From assembly GCA_016194325.1 (NCBI GenBank), contig JACQBS010000051.1:7855-71854 (forward strand): a DNA stretch of 64,000 nucleotides, in the 5' to 3' direction. Shown here piece after piece: positions 1,675 through 62,052 of this stretch. A model generated the notes under the pieces. The model was given only the letters and a program-made list of their open reading frames with translations. It ran no database searches and had not been told where the DNA came from. The position numbers were made by a program, and so were the translations under genes. This DNA comes from Nitrospinota bacterium (GTDB lineage: Bacteria > Nitrospinota > Nitrospinia > UBA9942). The stretch's first letter is position 1; every line of letters starts with the position of its first letter.

Positions 1675-3879
1675 ATGTTTAGAAAATACCCGAATAAAAA
1701 CCTGAATTTAACTACAGAAGCACAGAGGACACGGAGACACAGAGATTTTAAAAGCGGTTTAAACAGTTTAAACGGTTTAATCCGGTTTTTTCCTCAGTGC
1801 CTCAGTGTCTCTGTGGCTTATAACTTCCTGCTCAAAATAAAGCTGATATTACTTATTTTTTTAGTGGCAGTTGATTTTTTTCTTTTAATCCTTATCTATA
1901 CGCCGATTGTAGATGCAACAGGGGGGGCATTTCCATATACGAAACATGGAGGTGTTGCAGGGAATGGAGTGGATCGCTCTACAACAGGGAACTGGCCCCC
2001 TGCATCTGGTGCAGGCACATATCAGAAAGGTGAATGCACTCACTGTCATGAACCACATGCAAGCTTCGGTGGAGACGAACCCTATCCCAACTATACCAAT
2101 CACCCCTCCTTTATGACGCAGGAAGAAGCTCAGGGGCCAGACCCATATCTTCTATTTGCCGATGATAACGCAAATCTATGCTGGACATGCCATGAGACTT
2201 TTCAGTTTACAGGCAAACCATTAGGATGGGGGGCATATGGATTTTATCAGGGGAGGAGTGTCTATCTGTCATCAACACATGGTGACCCATTGAAAAATGC
2301 AAATATGTTATGGCCGGGTATTAGCGGTGCAACGGTTCATCCAAGAAAAGCCCGCCCATCTACACTCAATGGTGTTTCTCAAAAAGGTATATGTCTGAAC
2401 TGTCATACTCCTCATGGTATTCGCGGTAGTGAAGGGAATGCCTATGATACAGATGCAGTCCCTGAGTCAAAACAGCTTACAACGAGCAACCCTTCTGTTA
2501 CTGCGGATTATCTTATTCCCCGTCAGCTTAATGCATGGGAAGAGAAGCTATGTGAAACCTGTCATGACGCAAGTGGGCCTGCAATTAACAACATTCAGAG
2601 TGAAATTGATAAAAGAAGTCTTGGGGGAAGCGGCCACCCTGTGGATGATACAAATCTATCAGGGCGACATGTTGTCAATGAAACTTTTCCTATAACTTCA
2701 AAGCATGTGGAATGCTATGATTGTCATAACCCTCATGTCATTAAATCAAGCAGCAGGGTTGAAGGATTAAGATATGTAGATATAAGTGGTGTTCCAAAGG
2801 ATCCAGCAGCAGGTGATTCACAGCCTTATGTCTATCAAATATGTTTTAAATGCCATGGCGATGGATATGCTAATTTTATTCCTGCGAAAACCCATCCCGG
2901 TCCCGGGCTTAATCCAAATCATTCAAATCATCCACTGCGAACCAGTACTGGAAATCCTGCCTCAGGTAATACTAATGGGAGCAATAAAAGGCTTGAATTT
3001 AACCCTTCAAGCACAAGCTCTCAATCAGATTGCGGATCATACCAGGCATCTGATTGCAGGCCCAGCCCAAGTCAGAATACTGCCTATCATCCAGTAGCCT
3101 CTACTGGTAGGAATACATCGGCTGCTATACAGAGGCAATTACTGGCTGGTCTATCTCCTGACAAGACTATTATGTGCACTGATTGCCATAATTCCGAGGC
3201 AACAGGAAGCATACAGGGACCTGTAACAGAATCCAACTTAAGGGCTACAGACCTTCCATCGGGATATGCCGGAGTAAGCCCTATAGGTCCTCATGGCTCA
3301 CAACCACCTTCTGTAGGCGGTTACCAGACATATCGGATTTTAAGGGCCAATTACAATACGACATTAGGGGGGGCAACTGAGCCATTTACTTCTTACAATC
3401 GTGATAATTTTGCCCTCTGTTTTCTCTGCCATAATGAAGAGGCATTTACAAAACAGTGTGGTGACCCTTATTTTGAGTGTGGTAGCTGGACAGATGGGCC
3501 CAAGACAAACTTCTATAGCACATTATATGATATAAATCTCCATGCAACCCATATAGCCAAAAAACCTGTTTTTGCAACTACTGGAACTTCTACAACCTGT
3601 GCAAACTGTCATTATAATGTTCATTCCAATATAGAGGCTGCCAATACTATGTATAACGACAGCAATGATCCGAACTGGAAGAGACCTCTGGATGGCGGAA
3701 CTCGTCTTATTAATTTTTCTCCAATTGTTGGAGCCAGCTCATGGTGGACCTATAGCAGACCATTCTGGGGGTGCGTTAAAACGACTGGCATATGGAGGAA
3801 GGGGTGTGATTTTAACTGTCATGGCTTCGATATGGAATTATGGTATTCACCCCCTAATATTGCAGACAGCTGTTACTAA
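1675..3879 (+). CDS. Multihaem c-type cytochrome (9 CXXCH + 1 CX3CH), membrane-anchored or secreted
   Basis: Haem motifs: CTHCH, CWTCH, CLNCH, CETCH, CYDCH, CFKCH, CTDCH, CFLCH, CANCH plus CDFNCH, many in a CXXCHxPH context. Hydrophobic segment LILLIFLVAVDFFLLILIY. The C-terminal ~390 aa are paralogous to the C-terminus of 11392..16635. Start uncertain: the ORF opens at TTG 1606 and ATG 1675 was chosen. The N-terminus is read through hairpin element 1715..1816. Confidence 0.8.
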   Translation: MFRKYPNKNLNLTTEAQRTRRHRDFKSGLNSLNGLIRFFPQCLSVSVAYNFLLKIKLILLIFLVAVDFFLLILIYTPIVDATGGAFPYTKHGGVAGNGVDRSTTGNWPPASGAGTYQKGECTHCHEPHASFGGDEPYPNYTNHPSFMTQEEAQGPDPYLLFADDNANLCWTCHETFQFTGKPLGWGAYGFYQGRSVYLSSTHGDPLKNANMLWPGISGATVHPRKARPSTLNGVSQKGICLNCHTPHGIRGSEGNAYDTDAVPESKQLTTSNPSVTADYLIPRQLNAWEEKLCETCHDASGPAINNIQSEIDKRSLGGSGHPVDDTNLSGRHVVNETFPITSKHVECYDCHNPHVIKSSSRVEGLRYVDISGVPKDPAAGDSQPYVYQICFKCHGDGYANFIPAKTHPGPGLNPNHSNHPLRTSTGNPASGNTNGSNKRLEFNPSSTSSQSDCGSYQASDCRPSPSQNTAYHPVASTGRNTSAAIQRQLLAGLSPDKTIMCTDCHNSEATGSIQGPVTESNLRATDLPSGYAGVSPIGPHGSQPPSVGGYQTYRILRANYNTTLGGATEPFTSYNRDNFALCFLCHNEEAFTKQCGDPYFECGSWTDGPKTNFYSTLYDINLHATHIAKKPVFATTGTSTTCANCHYNVHSNIEAANTMYNDSNDPNWKRPLDGGTRLINFSPIVGASSWWTYSRPFWGCVKTTGIWRKGCDFNCHGFDMELWYSPPNIADSCY
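1715..1816 (+). repeat. Tandem-unit hairpin element, CACAGAG/CTCTGTG family with CGGTTTAAA-repeat loop (copy 1)
   Basis: Left arm cagaagcacagaggacacggagacacagag; right arm cctcagtgcctcagtgtctctgtgg, about 21/29 complementary. Loop aaaagcggtttaaacagtttaaacggtttaatccggtt. A near-identical element lies at 17537..17643. Confidence 0.85.
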
Positions 3880-16761: not shown

Positions 16762-17531
16762 ATGCAAGTGAGATGGTTCTTATACCGGAGGGTAAGTTTA
16801 TAATGGGAAGTCGTGGAGACGGCGGAGATGAAGGTGTCTTAGGGGTGGATGTTGGGGTTGACCAGATTCCGCAAAGGGAGGTCTTCTTGAAGGCTTTTTA
16901 TATGGACAAATATGAGGTTACTGTCCAAGAGTATAAGGAGTTTGCAAAGGCAACAGGTCATCCCCTTCCCGGTCTTTTGACAGGTGAAGACAACCCCCTA
17001 ACCCCCTTTATTAAGGGGGAATTTAATGTGAAGGAGTGGGCAGTTAAATATCCTCCCATAGAGGATGATTTTCCAATCAATGATGTAACTTATATGGATG
17101 CGGAGGCTTATTGTTCATGGGCAGGTAAAAGGCTGCCTACTGAAGAGGAATGGGAGAAGGCTGCGAGGGGGAAAGATGGGAGGTTATACCCATGGGGAAA
17201 TGATAAAACAATTGGAAAGGCGAATACAATAGAGTGGTCAAAGGAAAAGGTGGCAGCGGTTGCTGTCGGGAGTTTTCCGACAGATATAAGCCCTTATGGA
17301 GTTTACGATATGGCTGGAAATATCATGGAATGGACATCTTCATGGTATGAGGCATATCCGGGGAGCAAACTAAAACGAGCACAATTTGGAAAAAAGTATA
17401 AGGTGATGAAAGGCGGGGCATGGATGGGACCAATGACACCCTTTGCACGGGGAGCACATCGGTATGCAGCAGGTGTTACAGAGAGAAACCATCATCCCCA
17501 TTTTGGATTTAGATGTGCAAAGGATATATAA
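16704..17531 (+). CDS. Secreted FGE-sulfatase-fold (SUMF1/formylglycine-generating-enzyme family) protein, catalytic Cys pair absent
   Basis: MVLIPEGKFIMGS...YMDKYEVTVQEYKEF...VTYMDAEAYCSWAGKRLPTEEEWEKAARG.DGRLYPWGN...YGVYDMAGNIMEWT...GFRCAKD. No GGS(Y/F)LCH.SYC motif. The ORF opens at ATG 16665 within the repeat arm. ATG 16704 (MIRNLL...) is preferred by analogy with 17660 and 19169. Confidence 0.8.
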   Translation: MIRNLLFTLLIAHCLSLIAYASEMVLIPEGKFIMGSRGDGGDEGVLGVDVGVDQIPQREVFLKAFYMDKYEVTVQEYKEFAKATGHPLPGLLTGEDNPLTPFIKGEFNVKEWAVKYPPIEDDFPINDVTYMDAEAYCSWAGKRLPTEEEWEKAARGKDGRLYPWGNDKTIGKANTIEWSKEKVAAVAVGSFPTDISPYGVYDMAGNIMEWTSSWYEAYPGSKLKRAQFGKKYKVMKGGAWMGPMTPFARGAHRYAAGVTERNHHPHFGFRCAKDI

Positions 17532-17536
17532 AATTA

Positions 17537-17643
17537 GCCACGGAGACACGGAGGCACAGAGTTTTTAAAAGCGGTTTACACGGTTTGAACAGTTTAAACG
17601 GTTTAATCTGGTTTATATCTCTGTGTCTCTGTGACTCTGTGGC
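17537..17643 (+). repeat. Tandem-unit hairpin element, CACAGAG/CTCTGTG family with CGGTTTAAA-repeat loop (copy 2)
   Basis: Left arm gccacggagacacggaggcacagag; right arm tctctgtgtctctgtgactctgtggc, about 21/25 complementary. The loop aaaagcggtttacacggtttgaacagtttaaacggtttaatctggtt is homologous to the loop of 1715..1816. Confidence 0.85.
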
Positions 17644-17659
17644 AAGAAAGGGTGAAATT

Positions 17660-18697
17660 ATGATTCGTAAATTATTACTTAAAACAGTGTCAGTGAATAG
17701 TGTCAGTGACAGGAAAAAAATACTAACATTGATACTTACACTTACACTTACACTGACACTGTCACTTGCATCAGCAAGTGATATGCTCCTCATCCCTGCC
17801 GGAGAATTTATTATGGGGAGCGGGGCTGTTCAGGGAACAGACCCTTACACTGACACTCACACTTTTAAAGAGGGGATTGACTATGGAGTGGATGAGATTC
17901 CACAGAGGAAGGTTTTTGTCAAAGACTTTTATATTGACAGATTTGAAGTAACAAATGCCGAATACAAAGAATATCTTAAATATCTCATTAAGAACAGGGT
18001 GAGGCTTCCATTTTATGAGGATATAGGTATCCCTATCCCGGAGGATTGGAGATATCTAAGAAGCAGTGTCAAAGAGTCAGAGAGTCAAAGTGTCAAAGTA
18101 AAAAATACTGATACTGACACTGACACTTATACTTTTAAAGAAGGCATGGAATATCATCCTGTAAGTGATGTGGATTGGTATATGGCAAATAGTTATTGTC
18201 AATGGAAAGGCAAGAGATTACCTACAGAAAATGAGTGGGAGAAGGCTGCAAGGGGGACAGACGGCAGGCTCTATCCATGGGGGAATGAAGAGAATAAAGG
18301 ATATGCGAATACCAGAAAAAGCAGTGTCAAAGAGTCAGAGAGTCAAAGTGTCAAAGTAAAAAATACTGACACTGACACTAACACTGACACTGGCACTGTG
18401 GCGGCAGGCTTTTTTAAAAAAGATGTTAGTCCTTATGGTGTCCATGATATGGGGGGGAATGTGGCTGAATGGACATCATCTTTATATCGTCCATATCCGG
18501 GAAGTCCTGTGGCAGAAAGAGAGGCATTTAAGAGAGAGTTCTATGTTGTCAGGGGCGGGTCCTATTTAATTAATGCCCATGAATCGGCAAGGGCATCGGC
18601 GAGATACTATATGCTCCCGACCCGTATGCCAAGGGCAGCAGATGCCTGGCATGGTGACGGGATGGTGGGGTTCAGATGTGCAAAAGATAAAGAATAG
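17660..18697 (+). CDS. Secreted FGE-sulfatase-fold protein carrying two in-frame hairpin-repeat insertions
   Basis: The leader is MIRKLLLKTVSVNSVSDRKKILTLILTLTLTLTLSLASA. FGE-family motifs: LLIPAGEFIMGS, RFEVTNAEYKEY, WYMANSYCQWKGKRLPTENEWEKAARGTDGRLYPWGN, YGVHDMGGNVAEWT, GFRCAKD. GGSYLINAHESARASARYY replaces the FGE motif GGS.LCH.SYC..YR, so both Cys are lost. The listed ORF start at 17513 is read-through of element 17537..17643. Confidence 0.8.
   Translation: MIRKLLLKTVSVNSVSDRKKILTLILTLTLTLTLSLASASDMLLIPAGEFIMGSGAVQGTDPYTDTHTFKEGIDYGVDEIPQRKVFVKDFYIDRFEVTNAEYKEYLKYLIKNRVRLPFYEDIGIPIPEDWRYLRSSVKESESQSVKVKNTDTDTDTYTFKEGMEYHPVSDVDWYMANSYCQWKGKRLPTENEWEKAARGTDGRLYPWGNEENKGYANTRKSSVKESESQSVKVKNTDTDTNTDTGTVAAGFFKKDVSPYGVHDMGGNVAEWTSSLYRPYPGSPVAEREAFKREFYVVRGGSYLINAHESARASARYYMLPTRMPRAADAWHGDGMVGFRCAKDKE
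18065..18136 (+). repeat. In-frame hairpin insertion 1 in FGE-like CDS (AGTCAAAG arm / A-loop / CTGACAC arm)
   Basis: Sequence: agtgtcaaagagtcagagagtcaaagtgtcaaag-taaaaaat-actgatactgacactgacacttatactttt. It is 72 nt (24 codons) and encodes SVKESESQSVKVKNTDTDTDTYTF. Confidence 0.85.
18323..18398 (+). repeat. In-frame hairpin insertion 2 in FGE-like CDS
   Basis: The left arm and loop (agcagtgtcaaagagtcagagagtcaaagtgtcaaagtaaaaaatactga) are identical to insertion 1, which lies 258 nt upstream. The right arm is actgacactgacactaacactgacactggcactg. It encodes SVKESESQSVKVKNTDTDTNTDTGT. Confidence 0.85.
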
Positions 18698-19160
18698 TAT
18701 CAAAGTGTCAGAGTATCAGAGTGTCAGAGTTTTTTACTTTGACACTATATAAAAGTGTCAGAGGTAATATGGAAGAGAAAAAGGGTTACAAAAAACTGAG
18801 GGTATGGGAAAAGGCACATCAACTTGCAATGGAAATTTATAATACTACTAAAATATTTCCAAAAGAAGAGTTGTATGGATTAACTTCACAGATTAGAAGA
18901 GCAGCGTTTTCAGTTCCTTTAAATATAGTAGAGGGACATGCAAGTATTAGCAAGAAAGAATTTTTGAATTTTCTTAATATGGCAAATAGGTCCCTTGTTG
19001 AGACAGAATATCTGTTAGAGATAGTGAGAGAATTAAGCTTTTTAAATGAACCCGAGTATCAAAGGTTAGAGAAAATACGCAGTGAAGTTGCAGTTATATT
19101 AAACGCTTTTCGAAAAAGTATCAAACTTTGATACTTTGACACTCTGACACTTTGACACTT
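18696..19160 (+). repeat. Inverted octamer-repeat arms bracketing the four-helix-bundle gene (gene-in-loop hairpin cassette)
   Basis: The left arm is agtatcaaagtgtcagagtatcagagtgtcagag (18696..18729), followed by the mini-hairpin ctttgacact/aagtgtcagag (18737..18762). The right arm ctttgatactttgacactctgacactttgacactt (19126..19160) overlaps the stop codon. Confidence 0.85.
18769..19131 (+). CDS. Four-helix-bundle protein (23S rRNA intervening-sequence protein family; Avd-like fold)
   Basis: MEEKKGYKKLRVWEKAHQLAMEIYNTTKIFPKEELYGLTSQIRRAAFSVPLNIVEGHASISKKEFLNFLNMANRSLVETEYLLEI matches the family pattern (L.VW.KA....iY..t..FPk.E.ygL.sQirRAa.S...NI.EG). The ORF opens at GTG 18721 in the repeat; ATG 18769 after GAGGT is preferred. 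Confidence 0.85.
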   Translation: MEEKKGYKKLRVWEKAHQLAMEIYNTTKIFPKEELYGLTSQIRRAAFSVPLNIVEGHASISKKEFLNFLNMANRSLVETEYLLEIVRELSFLNEPEYQRLEKIRSEVAVILNAFRKSIKL

Positions 19161-19168
19161 TAAAACTT

Positions 19169-22100
19169 ATGATTCGCAAATTGCTGCAAATATTACTATT
19201 TACACTGACACTGACACTGTCACTTTCCCCTGTGTTTGCTACGATCTCTACTGTTGACTCACAGGGTGGTGCGTATAGCTCTATTAAGCTCCAATCTGAT
19301 GGTAAGCCTGCGGTTGCCTACTTTGACCATAAAACCGGGGAGTTGAGGTATTCTTACTGGACAGCGAATGGGACAGTGAATCAATGGATTCGCACTGTCG
19401 TGGAAGAAAAAGGTGTAACAGGGTATGTCTCCCTATGGTTAGGCAGCGGAAATAAGCCCTACATAAGCTACTATCACAACATAAGTAAGAATAACAGCAC
19501 AGGCTCAGATATAAACGGTAAATACGGCAACCACATGGTAGGTGCACTCAAATATGCCTATTGTTCTACTACAACCTGTCTTACACCTGAGGACTGGACA
19601 AAGGTAACTGTGGCAGAGATTGGTCAATCACAAAACGGGCATACTGGAGGGTTTACATCCCTTGCCTTTGATTCGTCAGGAAATCCGAGGATAGCCTATT
19701 ATGACTTTTCTCATAAGATAGATGCCAATGACATAAAGAAAGGTGCATTAAAACTTGCCTATTGTGACAGTAATTGCAGCAGTAGTAGTAGCTGGTCAAT
19801 AAGCACAGTTGATACTGATGGCGGCAGGTCTGCCTCTATGGTTATAAATTCCAGCAATAAGGTGATGTTCAGCTATGATGCTGATGAAGTGCAGACAGTA
19901 AGGTATGCGGAAGGCTCACCCCCATTTTCATCATGGACTAAAGCGGATATAGATACAATTGTAAACACGAGTAATTTATTCAGGGATACATCAATAGCAA
20001 TTCATCCAACCACGGGGAAGCCGAGGCTTATATATCAATATCAAGGGCAGGCTGACTATGGAACAGGCGGTACTTGTAGTTCTTGTACCCGGTCTGTCAG
20101 CGATCGATATTATGGTTACAATACTCCCGGGATTATAACCCGTCGTGATGCATACTATGCCTATTGTGATGCTGCTGATTGCACAGTTTCTACAAACTGG
20201 ACAAAAAATGTTGTTTTAGAGAGTAATGAGAGATATTTGAGGGGATATACATCTTCAATTAAGGTTGGGAGTGACGGTCCAAAGATTGCGTATCATTACT
20301 GGGGGCATAGGGCAAATAGTGCTTATTCTATTGGGCTTACTCAGAACCTCCAATATGTTAACTGTACTACCGCGAATTGTTCAAGTAAGAACATCTCCAC
20401 TATTGATTCAACAGAGAACACAGGGCTTTATTCTTCCATTGCACTTGATTCCTCTAACAATCCTTTGATTTCTTATTACGATTATGATTCAAACCAATTA
20501 AAGCTTTACCATCCGACAAACTCTTATACTGATGCTGGTATTACAGCAGATACCCGTGCAAGCGATACATCCAATGGAGGCACAGGACTACAGAGTGGGG
20601 ATAGCTTCAAAATCCTCTTTTCAGGTGCTACTAATGGAGCAGCATGCTCTATTACTACTGCTAATATAGACAGTATCCTCAAACTCTCAAATGGTCATTC
20701 CTGGGTATGCTCGGGGAGCAGTATAACAGCTACATGGAGTAACACCTACAATACAAACGATACACTAACAATCACGGTTACTTCCGGCACAGGTGGCTGT
20801 GTGCCTACAGTGGAGGTTGGGGATAGGGTATCTCTGAATGGAACCTGTATATTAGATGGGAGTGGTAATCCTATTATTTTACAGACAGAGATAAGGGGTA
20901 GCACCGGAGTCAAGGTTCCAACCGGCGCTGTAGCATATTGGAAGATGGATGAAGGTGCGAAGCTTACTGCCTGGGACAGTGTAGGTCCACATAATGCATC
21001 TTTGAACAATGGTGTTACATGGACAACAGGTCTTAGTGGCTCTGGACTCTCTCTTGATGGCAGTGATGACTATCTGATTGTCCCCGGAAACCCTGTTGAT
21101 TTAGATATTAAAGGGGGGAAGATTACCATTGAGGCATGGCTCAAGCCGAATAATTTATTTAGCACAAATTATACTGTCCTCAGTAAAGAGAATAGTTATG
21201 CAATGACATCAAATGGTCAGTGTGCCATAGAAACATCCGATACAGGAACAACATGGGCATGGTATGGGGGAGCGAGTATGAGCAGATTGCAAAGAAATTA
21301 TTCAGGAAATAAGGATATATGGAGACAGGTTGTCTGCACATACGATGGAACAACACAGAAGGTTTATATAGATGGCATCTTTGATGGAAGTCTATCACGG
21401 ACAGGAACTGTAAGCGCCTCAAATTATCCTTTTGTAATGGGGAGGAGGGAACTGTCAACATGGCCTACGAACAGAGGATATGATAGTAATGGTTGTCCTG
21501 GTACCGTCAGCGGTTGCAGTGGTGAAAACTACTGGGGGACAAATTATTACAATGGGAAAATGGATGAGGTTGTTATATATAATACTGCACTTTCACAGAC
21601 TGAAATTTTAAATCGTTTCAGCTCATTACCTGCCCAGTTTGAGAGGGCAGATGCAAATGATACATCTATGAGTGGCTATGGGCTTCAGGCAGGGGATACT
21701 ATAGCAATAAGGTTCACGAATGAGACAAATGCCCCTACAATAAATGCAGGAAATATAAATACAGTCCTCTCAGTTACTGGAAAGACATGGAAGGATGGGA
21801 GTGGAAATATAGGTAGTGCAGTATGGAGTCAAACAAGATTCACTAATGATACACTATTAATCACATTAAGCACAGCAACCAGTGCCCCCACAGTTGCAAC
21901 AGGAGATATAATAACCCTATCGGGAGGAATAATAAAAGAGAAAACCGGGATCAACTCTATTACAGGCTCCACTAAAATCAGGGGAAGTTATGATTTGAAT
22001 GGTGCTGTTGCATACTGGAATCTTGACGAGAGCAGCGGGGATCCATCAGACAGTGTCGGGCAGTATAATACCGGGACACTTGCTTGTGTTGGTACGGGTT

Positions 22101-25100
22101 GCACTAATCCAACCTATGCCGCAGGTAAATATGGCAATGCTATGACATTTGCCAGCGCCTCATCTCAATATGTTTCTGTCTCAAACTACCCTGATTTAAA
22201 CCCATCTACCTCTATCACAGTAGAGGCATGGGTTAGCCTTAGTGATACAGGGGCTGAGCATGTTATATTATCAAAGAATAATCAGTATCTTCTTAGATAT
22301 TCTACAAACAACAAATTCTCCTTTTATTTGTATGATGGGACCGATTGGGAACCAGGTGTTCATAGCGCTACATTACCAAGCTCCAATACATGGTATCATG
22401 TTGTAGGAACATGGGATGGGACAAATCAAAAAATTTATGTAAATGGAGTATTGGAAAATACTGTTACCCATAACTTCACGTCTGCCTCTACTACAAATGC
22501 AGTAGAAATTGGAAAATGGTCTGCATATATGAACGGTCTTATTGACGAAGTTGTGATTTACAATCGTGCCATTACGGATGATGAGGTTCGGAAGCGGAAT
22601 AGTTCAAGGCTTAAGACTGCTGTGGCTAAAGATGCCTCAGGCTTATCAGGTATTCAGGCGGGGGATAAGGTTATAATTACATTTGATGCACCCACAGGCG
22701 CCACTTCAATAACAAGCGCCAATATAGGTACCGCCCTATCCCTCTCCAGCAGTCATTCATGGAAGGATGGTGCTGGAAATATAGGAAGTGCTGTATGGAG
22801 CACAACAACCTATACAAATGATACACTTACAATAACTTTAAGTACAGGGACAAGTGTTCCAACTGTTGCTGTCGGGGATACGATTACACTCGGTACCACA
22901 ATAAAAGATACATTTAATAGAACAATAACAGGCTCGCTAACTATAGGTGGAACATTCGGGACTGCACTTCCATCCGGGAGTGTAGCATACTATAACTTTG
23001 ATGAGCAGAGTGGAGGGACAGCACACGATTCAATAGGAAACAATCATGGAACGCTAAATAATTCCTTCTGGAAGACTGAGCGGCTCTTCAAGGGACTCTA
23101 CTTTGATGGCAGCAGATATGTTGATGTCCCGGATAGTTCTGACTTTGACCTCTCATCCTATACAATAGATGCGTGGGTGAAGGTGCCTGATGGATTAACT
23201 ACTACTACCCAATACAGACAAATTATCTCACAGGATGATGGTGCAAACTACTGGAGGATGAGGCTGAATAATAACACACTTGAGCTCTGTGACAGCAGGC
23301 TCACAATGAGCGACTCAACTACATGCTTTAAAACAGCCACAACTATTAATGATGGAGAATGGCATCATGTAGCAGTTGTCCGGGATGGGACAAATAATCA
23401 GGTTTTACTATATATAGATGGTGTCCCCCTCGCAACAGATAATACTACAGGTGGAGGGACCGCCCACAATATCTCGGCTGCGGTTCAGCTCGGCAGGAAA
23501 TATGATAGCACAGGATATTTTTATGGAATGATAGATGAGGTTGTCCTCTATAACAGGGCACTAACGGCTACGGATATACAGAGTAGATACCGTGCACCAT
23601 TAAAATCAGCCTTCACAAGTGATATATACTTTAATTCAGGAAAACAGGCAGGTGATAAGGTTATTATCAGGTTCCATGGGAAGACGAATGGCTCTACTCC
23701 TGCGATTGATGCTACCAATATCAATACAATCCTTCAACTCTCAAGCGGTTCATGGAAAGATGGTGCAAATCAGATTGGCAGTGCGGTATGGTCAACATAT
23801 AAATGGACAAATGATACATTAACCATAACATTGAGTGCAGGAACAAGCGCCCCTACAATAGCATCAGGTGCTACCATAACAGTGAATGGGACATATATAA
23901 AAGACACATTTAATAATGCCATATCCGATTCAATAACATTAAGTAAAGACTTTGACTTTAACCTGCCAGAGGGTGCAGTGGCGTACTATAAGATGGAGAA
24001 TAATAATGACAGCTTTGGCACGAATAATATAACAACTAACACTGGCACAGGAGGTGCATGTAAGTTTGGCAATTGCTACACCTATGGTGCAAATCAATAT
24101 GCCTCTATTACTAACTCCTACACTCTAAACCCTGAGAGGATTACAGTAGAGGCATGGGTTAATCCCGGCACCTCAACTGCAACATGGGCTACCGGAAATG
24201 CATACTTCTTCTATGGAGCCAATTCTGTTCAGTTCTATGGTGCAGCCGGTGCAGCCACAGTTCGTTTCAGTGTATATGTAAATGGTGCATGGACGAATAT
24301 GAATTATACGCCCTCAAGTATCTCCGGATGGCATCACTATGTTGGGACATATGATGGTGCAAACTTAAGACTCTATATGGATGGTGTGGCAGTGGGGACC
24401 CCTGTTACATTATCGGGAGTTATAAATCAATTTGATACTGGCACTTTCTACCTTACTCAACCTGCAACCGCAAATAATCCATCTGTTTCTATAGATGATG
24501 TCGCTGTCTATAACCGTGCATTGACAGCAGAAGAGGTTCTTGGCCGTTATGGAGATTATACAGTTACTGCCATTGCAAGGGATACATCTGGAGGAGGACC
24601 TGGTATTCAGGCAGGGGATACAGTTACATTCAAGTTCTCAGGACCAACAAATGGTGCTGTTATTGATGCTGCCAATATAGATAATGCCCTTGCCATTTAT
24701 GAGCTAAACACATGGAAGGATGGGAGTGGGAATATAGGGAGTGCAGTATGGAGTTCTCCTACCTATTCAAACGATACACTGACAATTACATTAAGCACAG
24801 GGACGAGTGTCCCCACTGTTGCACCACTGAATAATATTACAATAGGCTCGCCAATAGGCTCAAAATACAGGGCATTCACAAAGAGTGCAAAAATCGGAGG
24901 ATTATTTGGGGATAATCTTCCTGCTTCGGGTAACAAGGTAGTCTACTATAACTTTAATGAGCAGAATGGAACTACTGCCTATGATTCAATTGGAAGCAAT
25001 CATGGGACGCTAAATAATTCCTTCTGGAGGACGGAGCAGACATTCAAAGGACTTTATTTTGATGGCAGCAGATATGTTGATATTCCTGATAGTGATGATT

Positions 25101-28100
25101 TTAACCTCTCATCTTATACAATAGATGCATGGGTGAAGGTGCCAGATGGCTTGACTACAGGCATTAGACAAATTATCTCACAGGATAATGGAACGAGCTA
25201 CTGGAGGATGAGGCTAAATAATAACACACTTGAGCTTTGTGACAGCAGGCTCACAAGTCCGTGTAATAATACAGCCACAACTATTAATGATGGAGAATGG
25301 CATCATATAGCAGTTGTTCGTGATGATGCATTGGATAAGGTTTTATTTTATATAGATGGTGTGAATATCTGGACAGTCTCATCACTTACAGAAACAGGGA
25401 CACATGCTATAAATGCTAATATTCAAATAGGCAGGAAGTATAATGGCACAGAATATTTTTATGGAATGATAGATGAGGTTGTCCTCTATAACAGGGTGCT
25501 GACAGATGCAGAAATACAGACCAGATACCGTGCCCCTGTAAAATCTGCCTTCACAAGTGATTCATATTTTAGCTCAGGAATAGTCTCAGGGAAAGATAAG
25601 GTTGTTATAAGATTCCATGGAAAGACGAATGTGGCGACGGCAATAGATAGCACTAATATCAATACAATTCTTCCAATAACAGGAAAGACGACAGGATGGG
25701 GAACTGTCCAGGGTGCAGTATGGTCAACATATCCTACTGGTGGAACTATGACAAATAATACACTGACCATAACATTAGGCACAGGGGCAACAATAGCAAA
25801 GGGGGATACAATAACAACAAACGGCACATATATCAAAGATTTATATCTCAATTCCATATCCGATTTAATAACATTGAGCGGAGATTTTAACCTTAATCTG
25901 CCTGAAGGTGCAGGAGCATACTGGAGATTTGATGAGACTACCGGGACTACTGCATCCGACAGTTTCAATGGTAATAGCGGGACACTTATAAATTCCACAT
26001 GGACTACTGGAAAAATCAATAATGCCCTCCAGTTTGGTGGACCCTTGACTTATACTAAACTTTCAGCAGGCACAGCCACTGCCATCAGCACCAGTGCTAA
26101 TTATAGACTGAATGGACCACAAGATGGTCAGGGGAGTACCGTTGGAACTTGCACCTCCACTACCAGTACCTGTTATACCTGGCGTGCTAATACCGCTGTT
26201 AACAATGAGTGGTGGCAGGTAAACTTCGGAAGTTCTCAAACAATTTCAAGGGTAAAAGTGTATGCATATACAACAGGCACAACTGCAACTTATAAAGTGC
26301 AGACATCACCAGATGGCTCAACATGGACAGATAGGGGGAGCACAACAACGAACGGATGGACTACTTTTGATTTCTCTCCGATAACATCGCAATATGTCCG
26401 GGTGTATGAGACCGCTAATGCCGGCGATGGCTTTCTCTATATATCAGAAGTAGAGGTTTATAATGATAATAGTGGTAATAATTATGCTCAAGTCAATAAC
26501 TCCTACTCCCTGAACCCTGAAAGGCTCACAGTAGAGGCGTGGGCAAAGAGTGGTGCAGCTTCATGGAATGTTACTGATGCACTTGTAACTAAGGCTTCTG
26601 CTTACAAACTCTCTACAACTTCCGGTTCCAAAAATATGTCCTTCTACATATATGCAGGCGGGGCATGGCGGGGTCCTGCTACATTTACTGCTGATGGGAG
26701 CTTTGACATCACACAGTGGCACCATTATGCAGGGACCTATGATGGGGCAAATTTAAAAATTTATGTTGATGGTGTGCTTAAGAATACTACTGCCTATACA
26801 GGAGTGATAAATATCACTGATACAACGGGTCTTTACATAGGCAGTGATAATGGAACAACAAACTATTTGAATGCCAATATAGATGAGGTTGCAATTTATA
26901 ACCGTGCATTGACATTAGAAGAGGTGATTGGTCGTTACGGAGATTATAGCCCAATTACAGCCTTTGCAAATGACCCTGCACCTGATGTTTCGGGTATTCA
27001 GGCTGGGGATACAGTTGAAATAAGGTTCCCTGGACCAACAAATGGCGCTTTCATTGATGCAAGTAATATAGATAATTTCCTTACCCTATCAAATACCCAT
27101 TCATGGAAGGATGGGAGTCTTGCAATAGGTAGTGCAGTATGGAGCACAAGGGTATATGAGAATGATACATTGACAATTACATTAAGTGCAACTACAAGTG
27201 CACCTACTGTTGCACCACAGGATACAATCTCAATAGGCGGTGCCGGAGAGATAAATGCGAAATACAGGGCAGCCGCATGGAACCCGAAAATCAGCGGGAC
27301 ATTTGGAGAGCCGTTACCCGGGACACCCGCAGCATTTTGGAAGATGGATGAGAATACCGGCAATATTGCCTTTGACACTGTAGGGACGAATGATGGAACC
27401 CTTTCTGGCACAACTATCCCGGCATGGGGGACAGGCTTCTTCAACTATGGGCTGGACTTTAACAGCAGCACTGCCTATATGAATGTCGGTAGTATAATAT
27501 TAATTGGTGATTGGTCTATAGAGGGATGGTTCAAGTATCCTCTACCTATTGTTACAGGTACATATAATTCTCTTACAGGAGACCGCCGTGTTGTAGTCCA
27601 GAGAACAACAATGAAACTTGGGACATATAATGGTGCATTTGTTGATCTGGATACTCCTTATTTGATGAGTGGACTCGTATCAGGCTGGCATCATATTGCA
27701 GCAGTAGGTGATTCTACTGTTGGTGGATGTTCGCCCTTGCCCGACGGATGTACAAAGTTTTATATTGATAGTGTCCTTGTAGGAACAGCAAATTATAAGA
27801 CCACTGCTGCATTGACGACTATAGGTAATACAACTGCAGGTAATGAGCAGTTCGGTCTTATAGATGAGCTCGCTGTTTACTCAAGCGCCCTCACAGCAGA
27901 TGAGGTAGCCTCCCGCTATCTTGTCTTCTTTAAGGAAATCTATGCAAAAGATACGAGTAATGGTGGTGCTAATGTCCAGAATGGGGACCAGGTCATTGTC
28001 AGATTTGATGGACCTACAGGTGCAACATTTATAGATGGTAATAATATAGCTAATGCCCTGCAGTTATCTGCCGGCAGTTGGGGGACTATAACCTCTGCTA

Positions 28101-39990: not shown

Positions 39991-40073
39991 AGTGCAGAGT
40001 ATCAAAGTATCAAAGAGTCAAAGTATCATAGATTAAAGACTTTGACACTCTGACACTTTGACACTTTGACTCT
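39991..40073 (+). repeat. Intergenic octamer-unit hairpin (AGTCAAAG/CTTTGACA) between TolB-like genes 1 and 2
   Basis: Left arm agtgcagagtatcaaagtatcaaagagtcaaagtatca; 9-nt loop; right arm gactttgacactctgacactttgacactttgactct. It starts 6 nt after stop 39985 and ends 16 nt before ATG 40089. No T-tract. Confidence 0.85.
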
Positions 40074-50440: not shown

Positions 50441-51355
50441 ATGAAGAAATATGGAATACTTTTAGTGATATTTTTTTTCTACTCCATTTCCCCGCAGGTT
50501 GTAAGCGGAGAAGATATGGTTTTTGTCAAAGGCGGGTGTTTTCAGATGGGAGATACTTTTGGAGATGCAGAGAGTAAAAATAGAGAGAGCAAAGAAAAAC
50601 CTGTGCATAAGGAAGGTGACGAAAAGCCTGTGCATGAGGTATGTGTGGATGATTTTTATATAGGGAAGTATGAAGTAACAGTGGGTGAGTTCAGGGAATT
50701 TTTAAATACTACAGGATACATGACGGAAGATGAAATTGGAGATGGCTGTTTTGTCTTTGTAGGAAGAGAATGGAAAAAGGACAAAAGCAGGAATTGGCGT
50801 AATCCTGGTTTTTTACAGGATGATACTCATCCAGTATGCTGTGTATCATGGAATGATGCTGTAGCTTATGCTGAGTGGTTTTCAGGTAAGCTTGCCCCTG
50901 CAGGCAGTAAGCAGGGGACAGGCTTGTCCTCGCAAGCTATAAGCGGGGAAAAGAGGTATCGTCTGCCAACAGAGGCGGAGTGGGAGTATGCGGCAAGGAG
51001 CGGAGGGAAAAGGGAGAAATATTCTGGTGGTAACGATTTAGACAGTGTAGCGTGGTATGCTAACAACTCAGGCAGTAAAACCCATCCGGTAGGACAGAAA
51101 AATCCAAATGTATTGGGATTATATGACATGACAGGGAATCTATGGGAATGGTGTTCAGACTGGTATGATGAGAAATATTACAGTAATAGTCCAAAGGATA
51201 ATCCTAAAGGTGCTGTTAGCGGAATTTATCATGTTTTGCGCGGCGGTTCATGGTACAATGTTTCGCATCGCTTAGGAACTTTTGTCCGCGCCCAGCGCGA
51301 GCCTGAGAAGCGGGCTGACGGCAGTGGGTTTCGGCTTGCAGCCTCCGTGAAATAA
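50441..51355 (+). CDS. Secreted FGE-sulfatase-fold protein (second subfamily) with tandem stem-loop insertion
   Basis: The signal peptide is MKKYGILLVIFFFYSISPQVVSG. Motifs: MVFVKGGCFQMGD, FYIGKYEVTVGEFREFLNTTGY, HPVCCVSWNDAVAYAEWFS, YRLPTEAEWEYAARSGG, GLYDMTGNLWEWCSDWY, LRGGSW, GFRLA. Relative to the paralogue at 47608, the insert GKLAPAGSKQGTGLSSQAISGEK is extra. Confidence 0.8.
   Translation: MKKYGILLVIFFFYSISPQVVSGEDMVFVKGGCFQMGDTFGDAESKNRESKEKPVHKEGDEKPVHEVCVDDFYIGKYEVTVGEFREFLNTTGYMTEDEIGDGCFVFVGREWKKDKSRNWRNPGFLQDDTHPVCCVSWNDAVAYAEWFSGKLAPAGSKQGTGLSSQAISGEKRYRLPTEAEWEYAARSGGKREKYSGGNDLDSVAWYANNSGSKTHPVGQKNPNVLGLYDMTGNLWEWCSDWYDEKYYSNSPKDNPKGAVSGIYHVLRGGSWYNVSHRLGTFVRAQREPEKRADGSGFRLAASVK
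50891..50949 (+). repeat. Two adjacent copies of the 27-nt stem-loop element CTTGYCCYYGCA-N7-GCRGGGA, in frame in the CDS
   Basis: The two copies are cttgcccctgcaggcagtaagcagggga (50891..50918) and cttgtcctcgcaagctataagcgggga (50923..50949), with stems cccctgc/gcagggg and tcctcgc/gcgggga. Other copies lie at 38056..38083, 46117..46143, 53578..53604 and 54839..54865. Confidence 0.9.
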
Positions 51356-51422
51356 GAGTCAAAGAGTTAAAGTGTCAGAGAGTCAGGGCTTTGATACTTT
51401 GATACTCTGATACTTTGACACT
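51355..51422 (+). repeat. Intergenic octamer hairpin (AGTCAAAG/CTTTGATA) downstream of FGE-like gene
   Basis: Sequence: agagtcaaagagttaaagtgtcagagagtcag-gg-ctttgatactttgatactctgatactttgacact. It starts at the stop codon of 50441..51355. Confidence 0.85.
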
Positions 51423-61976: not shown

Positions 61977-62052
61977 GTGTCAGAGAGTTAAAGTATCAAA
62001 GAGTCAAAATTTTTTTACTATGATACTTTGAACTCTGAGATACTTTGACTCT
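61977..62052 (+). repeat. Intergenic octamer hairpin between the two ExbD/TolR genes
   Basis: Left gtgtcagagagttaaagtatcaaagagtcaaaa; loop tttttttacta; right tgatactttgaactctgagatactttgactct. In the best register about 20/23 positions pair, and alternative registers are possible. Confidence 0.8.

Follow-up and report, generated by a model that had tools for sequence, protein, structure and literature searches.

Intervening sequences (IVSs) interrupt the 23S rRNA gene at helix 25 or 45, and we know of no function assigned since the early 1990s to the open reading frame (ORF) inside them; large families of paralogs found outside rRNA bear no annotation beyond "four helix bundle protein". In the REPIN-RAYT system, a gene is flanked by inverted repetitive extragenic palindromic (REP) sequences, and the same hairpins are dispersed through the genome. 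Avd, the accessory protein of diversity-generating retroelements (DGRs), works with its reverse transcriptase (RT) on a structured RNA. Furthermore, short in-frame palindromic elements and miniature inverted-repeat transposable elements (MITEs) are known, such as the Rickettsia palindromic elements and the enterobacterial RU-1/ERIC types. The IVS of Coxiella burnetii measures 428-444 nt with a 28-bp stem, and the four-helix bundle assembles into a homopentamer as in structure 2GSC (PMC4990558). In bacteria of the candidate phyla radiation (CPR), non-intron rRNA insertions contain 23S_rRNA_IVP and GIY-YIG ORFs (10.1101/2024.02.27.582315), and Avd has been linked to the four-helix-bundle family in Pfam (PMC10053308). 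Here, we analyze a small gene of this family that is enclosed by inverted repeat arms within a 64,000-nt stretch of DNA from a Nitrospinota bacterium (GCA_016194325.1, contig JACQBS010000051.1; G000:C69:7855-71854 in our numbering), hereafter called the window. The assembly, G000, comprises 3.1 Mb in 175 contigs with 39% GC.

The closest known system to this locus is the ORF-bearing rRNA IVS, beside which we place the ORF-carrying non-intron rRNA insertions of CPR bacteria. That the gene and its arms form a mobile cassette of the IVS type appears highly likely to us, and we favor, with somewhat less assurance, the overall reading of an rRNA-IVS-type selfish cassette that lives outside rRNA. 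In the literature that we searched, no paper was found in which PF05635 genes that lie outside rRNA are described as mobile cassettes enclosed by a hairpin. The cassette (18696-19167, ~465 bp) fills an intergenic slot in a string of protein-coding genes, with the following features at and around it:

17513-18697, forward strand: upstream host gene, FGE/SUMF1-like, 394 aa (ORF list; PF03781, E 2.9e-51)
18696-18740, forward strand: left arm, 4.4 octamer units (AGTATCAA AGTGTCAG AGTATCAG AGTGTCAG AG), then a T-run; partner 19115-19159 (repeat search; TRF period 8, 4.4 copies; stem in the minimum free energy (MFE) and centroid structures)
18736-18746, forward strand: short internal piece of right-arm type, ACTTTGACACT (repeat search; MFE structure)
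18752-18768, forward strand: extra unit of left type, AAAGTGTCAGAGGTAAT, continuing into AGAGG, which resembles a Shine-Dalgarno sequence and lies 5 nt upstream of the ATG (sequence; repeat search)
18769-19131, forward strand: cargo gene, 120-aa four-helix-bundle protein, PF05635/TIGR02436 (Pfam, NCBIfam)
19115-19167, forward strand: right arm, 4.6 units of ACTTTGAC/ACTCTGAC (repeat search; TRF; sequence)
19169-35665, forward strand: downstream host gene, 5498 aa (ORF list; sequence; TRF; comparison with sister genome G003)

Both arms are composed of the octamer AGTRTCAR. Read directly, the left arm is AGTATCAAAGTGTCAGAGTATCAGAGTGTCAGAG at 18696-18729 and the right arm CTTTGATACTTTGACACTCTGACACTTTGACACTT at 19126-19160; the repeat search returned arms of 45 nt with 84% complementarity and 374 nt between them (18696-18740 and 19115-19159) or, as an alternative call, of 51 nt with 78% complementarity (18696-18746 and 19117-19167). 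An earlier reading of the window from its sequence alone had described octamer arms on both sides of the small gene, a right arm overlapping the cargo stop, and a position outside any rRNA. All of this agrees with our results, as both neighbors are protein genes and the cargo ORF runs from the ATG at 18769 to a TGA (19129-19131) that falls inside the right arm. The left arm begins within the TAG stop of the upstream FGE-type gene (18695-18697), and the right arm ends 2-10 nt ahead of the ATG of the 5498-aa gene (19169), the leader of which is cassette sequence throughout. The proposed physical coupling of cassette and hairpin to the start of this giant gene likewise holds, since the occupant of the site supplies the whole intergenic region, from the upstream stop to the giant-gene leader, as seen both in the sequence and in the comparison with G003. 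Within the cassette, the piece at 18736-18746 is able to pair with the last left-arm unit into a small alternative hairpin (repeat search, MFE structure). Because a left-type unit runs into AGAGG, the putative ribosome-binding site of the cargo gene appears to be made from arm sequence.

The assignment of the cargo gene to the 23S-IVS/Avd-like four-helix-bundle family, also proposed earlier, is well supported by full-length matches above the curated cut-offs to PF05635 (E 2.3e-36, 124.7 bits vs. a cut-off of 33.8, 105 of 106 model positions covered) and TIGR02436 (E 6.4e-35, 119.7 bits vs. a cut-off of 24). By sequence match, the nearest solved structures are 2GSC (E 2.5e-17) and 2RLD, with 5 chains per entry. 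Between the window gene and its relatives' copies, pN amounts to 0.15-0.23 and pS, which is saturated, to 0.75-0.89; with pN far below pS, the cargo is therefore a conserved four-helix-bundle protein under purifying selection. Paralogs within the same genome are only 19-44% identical to it at the amino acid level. A defense-system scan (PADLOC) gave no match, and no relative was found in the viral contigs searched.

The family PF05635 is what the cassette has in common with the rRNA IVSs of Coxiella burnetii (S23p) and Leptospira, together with a like geometry, i.e., an element of ~430-470 nt in which terminal inverted repeats form a long stem around the ORF. However, the defining location in 23S rRNA is absent here, as the neighbors are two protein genes, one of which receives its stop region and the other its leader from the cassette. 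Its arms differ as well, consisting of tandem 8-nt units that also form dispersed empty hairpins, and RNase III excision, which has been shown for rRNA IVSs, is only inferred for the cassette.

Since the genome is saturated with short tandem arrays (~3280 arrays with periods of 5-20, covering 2.8% of bases), chance had to be excluded explicitly as the origin of the bracketing. With ungapped arm scoring and a crude ORF calling for the controls, 12 of the 1472 ORFs of 100-170 aa in this genome showed an inverted-flank score of at least 14, including 6 four-helix-bundle, 2 GxxExxY, and 1 GIY-YIG gene. This corresponds to 6/8 family members compared to 6/1464 other ORFs (Fisher p = 2e-12); the 2 family members without such arms are a variant of 157 aa and an Avd that belongs to a true DGR. 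When array pairs were considered irrespective of genes, inverted pairs exceeded direct ones only at a spacing of 300-400 nt (7 vs. 3 at a score of at least 16), and the bins on either side contained 1 and 0 inverted pairs. Adjacent inverted pairs with a spacing of 330-425 nt numbered 11, and 9 of them enclosed cargo (6 four-helix-bundle and 3 GxxExxY genes), with units that were all different.

The census was extended to 47 family loci, covering 30 relatives plus Nitrospirota, Lentisphaerota, Acidobacteriota, Aminicenantes, Bacteroidota, CPR phyla, Planctomycetota, and Chloroflexota; genome contigs were searched with a single protein as query. Inverted flanks (score of at least 12) were identified in 38/47 loci but in only 5/272 mismatched upstream/downstream partners, and the direct-repeat control gave 10/47 loci. 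The median cassette spans 460 nt, with a left arm ending 16 nt before the ATG and a right arm beginning 19 nt after the stop. A random association of family members with repeats had been named as the outcome that could refute the sequence-only reading; as the association proved strongly non-random both within the genome and across phyla, this refutation fails. GxxExxY genes are packaged likewise (22/25 bracketed), and the 4 small GIY-YIG nuclease genes of the genome are all flanked by inverted repeats. For the latter (G000:C66:2982-3302, C17:2276-2563, C60:32514-32792, and C121:17822-18079, with scores of 25, 14, 13, and 18, respectively), the arms are unique palindromic sequences, e.g., TTTGTCATTGCGAG, rather than tandem units.

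The arms travel with the gene. The closest relatives of the cargo protein (66-78% amino acid identity) are encoded in Nitrospirota, Thermodesulfovibrionales, Victivallales (Lentisphaerota), and Omnitrophota. At all 5 relatives' loci with readable flanks (L013-L017; Nitrospirota and Lentisphaerota), the arms again consist of AGTGTCAR/AGTATCAA; 2 Omnitrophota loci lie at contig ends, where arms are not scorable. For the window cassette, L013, L014, L015, and L017, sequence similarity is bounded by the arms at both ends, and the flanks are unrelated. As pS is saturated and yet the arm unit is shared, the arm unit must be conserved beyond neutral drift. The cassette has a lower GC content than its flanks in 5/5 genomes compared (0.42 vs. 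0.66 for L017), a property in common with rRNA IVSs, which are lower in GC than their hosts and likewise share the sporadic distribution and the signs of horizontal transfer. Across 31 relatives, the copy number ranges from 0 to 18 with many decayed copies, and ~15 further copies in relatives contain internal stops, indicating that decay is common. A frameshifted four-helix-bundle gene in the window's own genome (G000:C128:2872-3202) directly follows the 3' end of a tRNA-like sequence (GGTTCGAATCC...CCA) and a complete ACTTATAAC-type hairpin. In Victivallales, the cassette (L015 and L017, ~1430-1900 per locus) is located between the E1-beta and E2 genes of a pyruvate dehydrogenase (PDH)/2-oxoacid dehydrogenase operon and is present there in 3 genomes, with a cassette GC of 0.34-0.42 vs. 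0.50-0.66 in the flanks; this copy looks like a stable, vertically kept insertion within an essential operon.

Comparisons between sister genomes revealed that cassettes appear, vanish, and replace each other as whole units. All genomes are metagenome-assembled, although the key loci have coherent flanks and are carried by long contigs. Sister genome G003 carries, between the FGE stop and the giant-gene ATG of the orthologous site (flanks 81-85% identical), a GxxExxY gene whose arms are of the CACAGAGA type; the order is left arm, gene, left-arm copy, loop, right arm. In sister genome G002, a GTGTAAG/ACTGAC hairpin occupies the same site, after which the contig ends. A second cassette of the window's genome (C67:5755-6266, 510 nt) lies between two che genes in the order left arm, right arm, gene, second right arm, and is cleanly absent from G003, in which 2 nt separate the upstream stop from the ATG that follows. 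The arms thus belong to the cassette and not to the site: they form a component of a cassette that is transferable, show specificity for the gene clade, and do not represent a local hairpin entered by a gene. In the three-arm cassettes G000:C67:5755-6266 (L062) and G003:C62 (L011, ~3104-3646), a full hairpin stands on one side and a third arm on the other, so that two alternative pairings are allowed. At C67, the right arm and leader in front of the cargo ATG recur with identical sequence in front of the next host gene's ATG. An integron gene cassette was considered and rejected, as the arms flank the ORF rather than follow it and the cassettes are single, in unrelated operons (che genes, PDH operon, and the window site).

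Each gene clade goes with its own repeat unit, and genomes holding the clade also hold dispersed empty hairpins of that unit. In the gene tree, closely related genes have arm units in common, even across families and phyla. The motif CRCR[GA]A occurred in 14/21 GxxExxY arms compared to 2/41 four-helix-bundle arms (p = 4e-7), whereas AAGT, GTCA, and AGTG were found in 10-15 of the 41 four-helix-bundle arms and in none of the 21 GxxExxY arms. The pattern AGTRTCARAGTRTCAR has 153 matches in the window's genome and 109, 78, 17, 7, and 0 in 5 others that carry the window gene's clade, but 0 in 2 same-class genomes without the family; the reversed-pattern control gave 0 as well. For a second clade, the pattern RGTRACARGTRACA has 11-26 matches in its 4 genomes, which are small and CPR-like, vs. 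0-1 in 6 others. Other cassettes of the window's genome use the units AATGCGG, ATTGAAG, and CACAGATAAA. Over 31 genomes, the copy numbers of the four-helix-bundle and GxxExxY families correlate (rho = 0.63), and array density is 2-4x higher in the sampled family-carrying genomes, in a sampling biased to contigs that hold the genes.

The empty hairpins of the same unit family that had been noticed between genes of the window are real (39998-40070, 51354-51422, and 61979-62050). Genome-wide, 202 empty hairpins compare to ~15 loaded ones, and many unit families are without a cargo gene in this genome. All 168 empty hairpins with polarity (such as those at 39998-40070 and 51354-51422) have the purine-rich arm 5' and the pyrimidine-rich arm 3', a further 34 being without polarity, and purine-first order also applies to 38/41 cassettes. 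Since a hairpin reads alike on both strands, this order is an intrinsic asymmetry of the element, independent of gene orientation; its interpretation as a polarity relative to the gene was dropped, because it is a strand-symmetric property of every hairpin.

These properties call for a comparison with REPIN-RAYT. In both, a single small gene lies between inverted copies of a genome-dispersed hairpin repeat (153 matches vs. 0 reversed for the cassette unit), and gene clade and repeat family travel together across genomes. However, the flanked gene of REPIN-RAYT is a HUH/Y1 transposase and that of the cassette a four-helix bundle. Unlike REPIN-RAYT, the cassette is itself multi-copy, diverse, and horizontally transferred, and its arms are composed of tandem short units instead of one fixed REP sequence. 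A RAYT model proper was rejected, as the two Y1_Tnp genes of the genome lie elsewhere, without these arms.

With respect to RNA structure, the long-range stem between left and right arm closes the fold of 18685-19180, whether taken as MFE or as centroid structure (-130.7 kcal/mol, z = -6.7, 0/100 shuffles as good). Cassette genes are co-oriented with the upstream ORF in 39/45 and with the downstream ORF in 39/41 cases. Promoter-like matches numbered 6, with 5.2 expected from shuffled sequence, and none of them has a position from which the cargo gene could be driven; given the lack of an obvious promoter of its own and the usual co-orientation with its neighbors, the cassette is probably transcribed by read-through. 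The right-arm unit ACTTTGACAC at 19133-19161 holds the sigma-70 -35 hexamer TTGACA twice in succession. The sole promoter-like match at the right arm (19144-19173) is unlikely to serve the 5498-aa gene, since its -10 element overlaps the ATG of that gene.

Based on these observations, we propose a mechanism in which the cassette would be transcribed by read-through from its neighbors and the arms in the transcript would pair into a stem of 35-45 bp. RNase III may then cut this stem, by analogy to the Coxiella and Leptospira IVSs, a step to which we give about an even chance. Such a cut would detach the cassette from the FGE message, the 5498-aa gene would retain a short leader made of right-arm sequence, and insertions inside operons and rRNA would thereby become tolerable. 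The four-helix-bundle protein, in turn, might recognize its own units and help to spread or maintain the hairpin family, much as RAYT does with REPINs. As the arm unit is conserved despite saturated synonymous sites and is cargo-family-specific, the protein would be the probable reader; in the overall balance, that the cargo protein reads its own repeat units is a tentative proposal, and we hold it to be more doubtful than the steps before it.

Several results weigh against the interpretation as a selfish IVS-type cassette and against parts of the proposed mechanism. The 23S rRNA is absent from the window's own assembly and from every family-carrying relative, which leaves any direct link to a true IVS conjectural; in the 3 relatives with a 23S gene, this gene is uninterrupted and no four-helix-bundle gene is present. 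Rfam families were likewise absent near 18 related loci. Of the hallmarks of terminal inverted repeat transposons and MITEs, the inverted ends are present, but the single clean comparison of a filled with an empty site (C67 vs. G003) shows no target-site duplication, and no transposase is encoded in or beside the cassette. Concerning the unit specificity, genome G035 carries the gene clade and yet has 0 exact dispersed AGTRTCARAGTRTCAR matches, the 4 genomes of the RGTRACARGTRACA replicate are all small, CPR-like, and perhaps not independent, and the match of gene clade and repeat unit can also stem from simple co-inheritance. In addition, three unrelated small-gene families share the hairpin packaging, which fits passive cargo as well as active cargo. 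Finally, the mismatches in 44 stems show no bias towards sense G.U pairs (60 vs. 54), so that nothing favors an RNA-level over a DNA-level structure; the duplex energies are equal (-35.9 kcal/mol for sense vs. -35.2 kcal/mol for antisense), and arm pairing could serve equally well at the DNA level.

Among the other explanations, the one with the greatest weight, although we consider it rather unlikely, is that the hairpin elements are the mobile agents, moved in trans (e.g., by a RAYT- or IS200-type Y1/HUH transposase) or by arm recombination, and that the genes merely ride in their loops. The packaging common to three unrelated gene families, the two Y1 transposases encoded in the genome, the excess of empty over loaded hairpins, and the many unit families without a cargo gene would all be expected of passive cargo. 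On the other hand, the Y1 genes are not flanked by these arms, and the arm motifs are specific to the cargo family and, across phyla, to the gene clade, with an arm unit that has been conserved where synonymous sites are saturated. The mobile, IVS-type cassette also has to be set against a resident regulatory structure, i.e., a stem that evolved in place around a vertically inherited gene as a signal for mRNA processing, stability, or insulation, without mobility. While the strong predicted long-range RNA stem, the ribosome-binding site and stop codon embedded in the arms, the usual co-orientation with neighboring genes, and the stable maintenance at one PDH-operon site in 3 Victivallales genomes would suit such a structure, it is largely refuted by the presence, absence, and replacement of whole cassettes between genomes of the same genus. 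Moreover, the closest relatives occur with the same arms in other phyla and in unrelated contexts, cassette GC differs from flank GC, and the stems lack a sense-strand G.U excess, which together make a resident structure quite improbable.

Coincidence, in which two flanking intergenic repeats happen to be complementary in a genome with ~3280 arrays, would gain from the very high repeat density, from a few ordinary genes (FlgC, CcmH) that are also flanked by complementary arrays, and from the fact that inverted and direct pairs are equally common beyond a spacing of 500 nt. It is refuted by the census in this genome and elsewhere, and the same arms go with the same gene clade in other phyla, so that we assign chance a very small residual probability. 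Smaller still, to the point of being negligible, is the probability that the cargo is an orphan Avd, left over from a decayed DGR. bAvd shares the homologous four-helix-bundle fold family with the cargo, there are weak matches to bAvd (PF22296, E 7e-4), DivGenRetAVD (27.6 bits), and the PHROG "Avd protein of DGR", and the genome holds a real DGR. However, the scores remain far under the Avd cut-offs (27.6 vs. 80 bits for NF033474 and 20.5 vs. 40 bits for PF22296), and the cassette is without RT, template repeat (TR), or variable repeat (VR), its neighbors being the FGE-type gene and a surface-protein gene; with sub-threshold scores and no adjacent RT with TR/VR, the assignment as a DGR accessory protein was rejected. 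The true DGR Avd of the genome (C131) is a separate, distant paralog (22% identity) that is flanked by a VR/TR direct repeat and has no inverted arms. At this locus (G000:C131:34814-35119), the Avd gene is flanked by ~65-nt direct repeat copies with the signature of TR and VR, in that they differ at positions of A in the downstream copy.

If four-helix-bundle genes outside rRNA generally live in arm-carrying mobile cassettes, rRNA IVSs would be the most visible landing site of widespread small mobile elements, and the link between protein clade and repeat unit would provide a lead towards what the IVS-type protein does. Mobile elements of this kind would also account for part of the extreme abundance of short tandem-repeat hairpins in this and some other lineages; these hairpins alter the leaders of operons, stop regions, and even coding sequences, with the start region of the 5498-aa surface protein as one example. 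As a speculative extension, PF05635 proteins, including the rRNA IVS ORFs, may be sequence-specific readers of short tandem units, each clade having its own 6-9-nt unit in the cassette arms and the dispersed empty hairpins and being needed to spread or keep that family. If true, this would amount to a REPIN-RAYT-like partnership of gene and selfish repeat that is run by a non-enzymatic nucleic-acid-binding bundle related to the DGR Avd, with GxxExxY proteins and GIY-YIG nucleases as parallel cargo types with arm signatures of their own.

The hairpin families of the genome extend into protein-coding sequence. Like the known palindromic elements and MITEs, short palindromes occupy both intergenic regions and reading frames here (the FGE gene and signal-peptide regions); the cassette differs from such elements by the protein gene in its loop, and neither a target-site duplication nor a parent transposon was found for it. 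The FGE-type gene contains two in-frame hairpin insertions (18065-18133 and 18323-18398; also 17844-17866) of the same AGTGTCAA unit family as the arms, with second arms of 6-nt period (ACTGAC), and its reading frame stays open. Furthermore, the hydrophobic cores of the signal peptides (LTLTLTL...) of the FGE-type gene (17722-17766) and the 5498-aa gene (19202-19224) are encoded by ACTGAC/ACACTG hexamer repeats, which represent the pyrimidine-rich arm type of the hairpin families; in the latter gene, the ACTGAC hexamers at 19202-19224 give rise to the signal-peptide sequence TLTLTLSLS.

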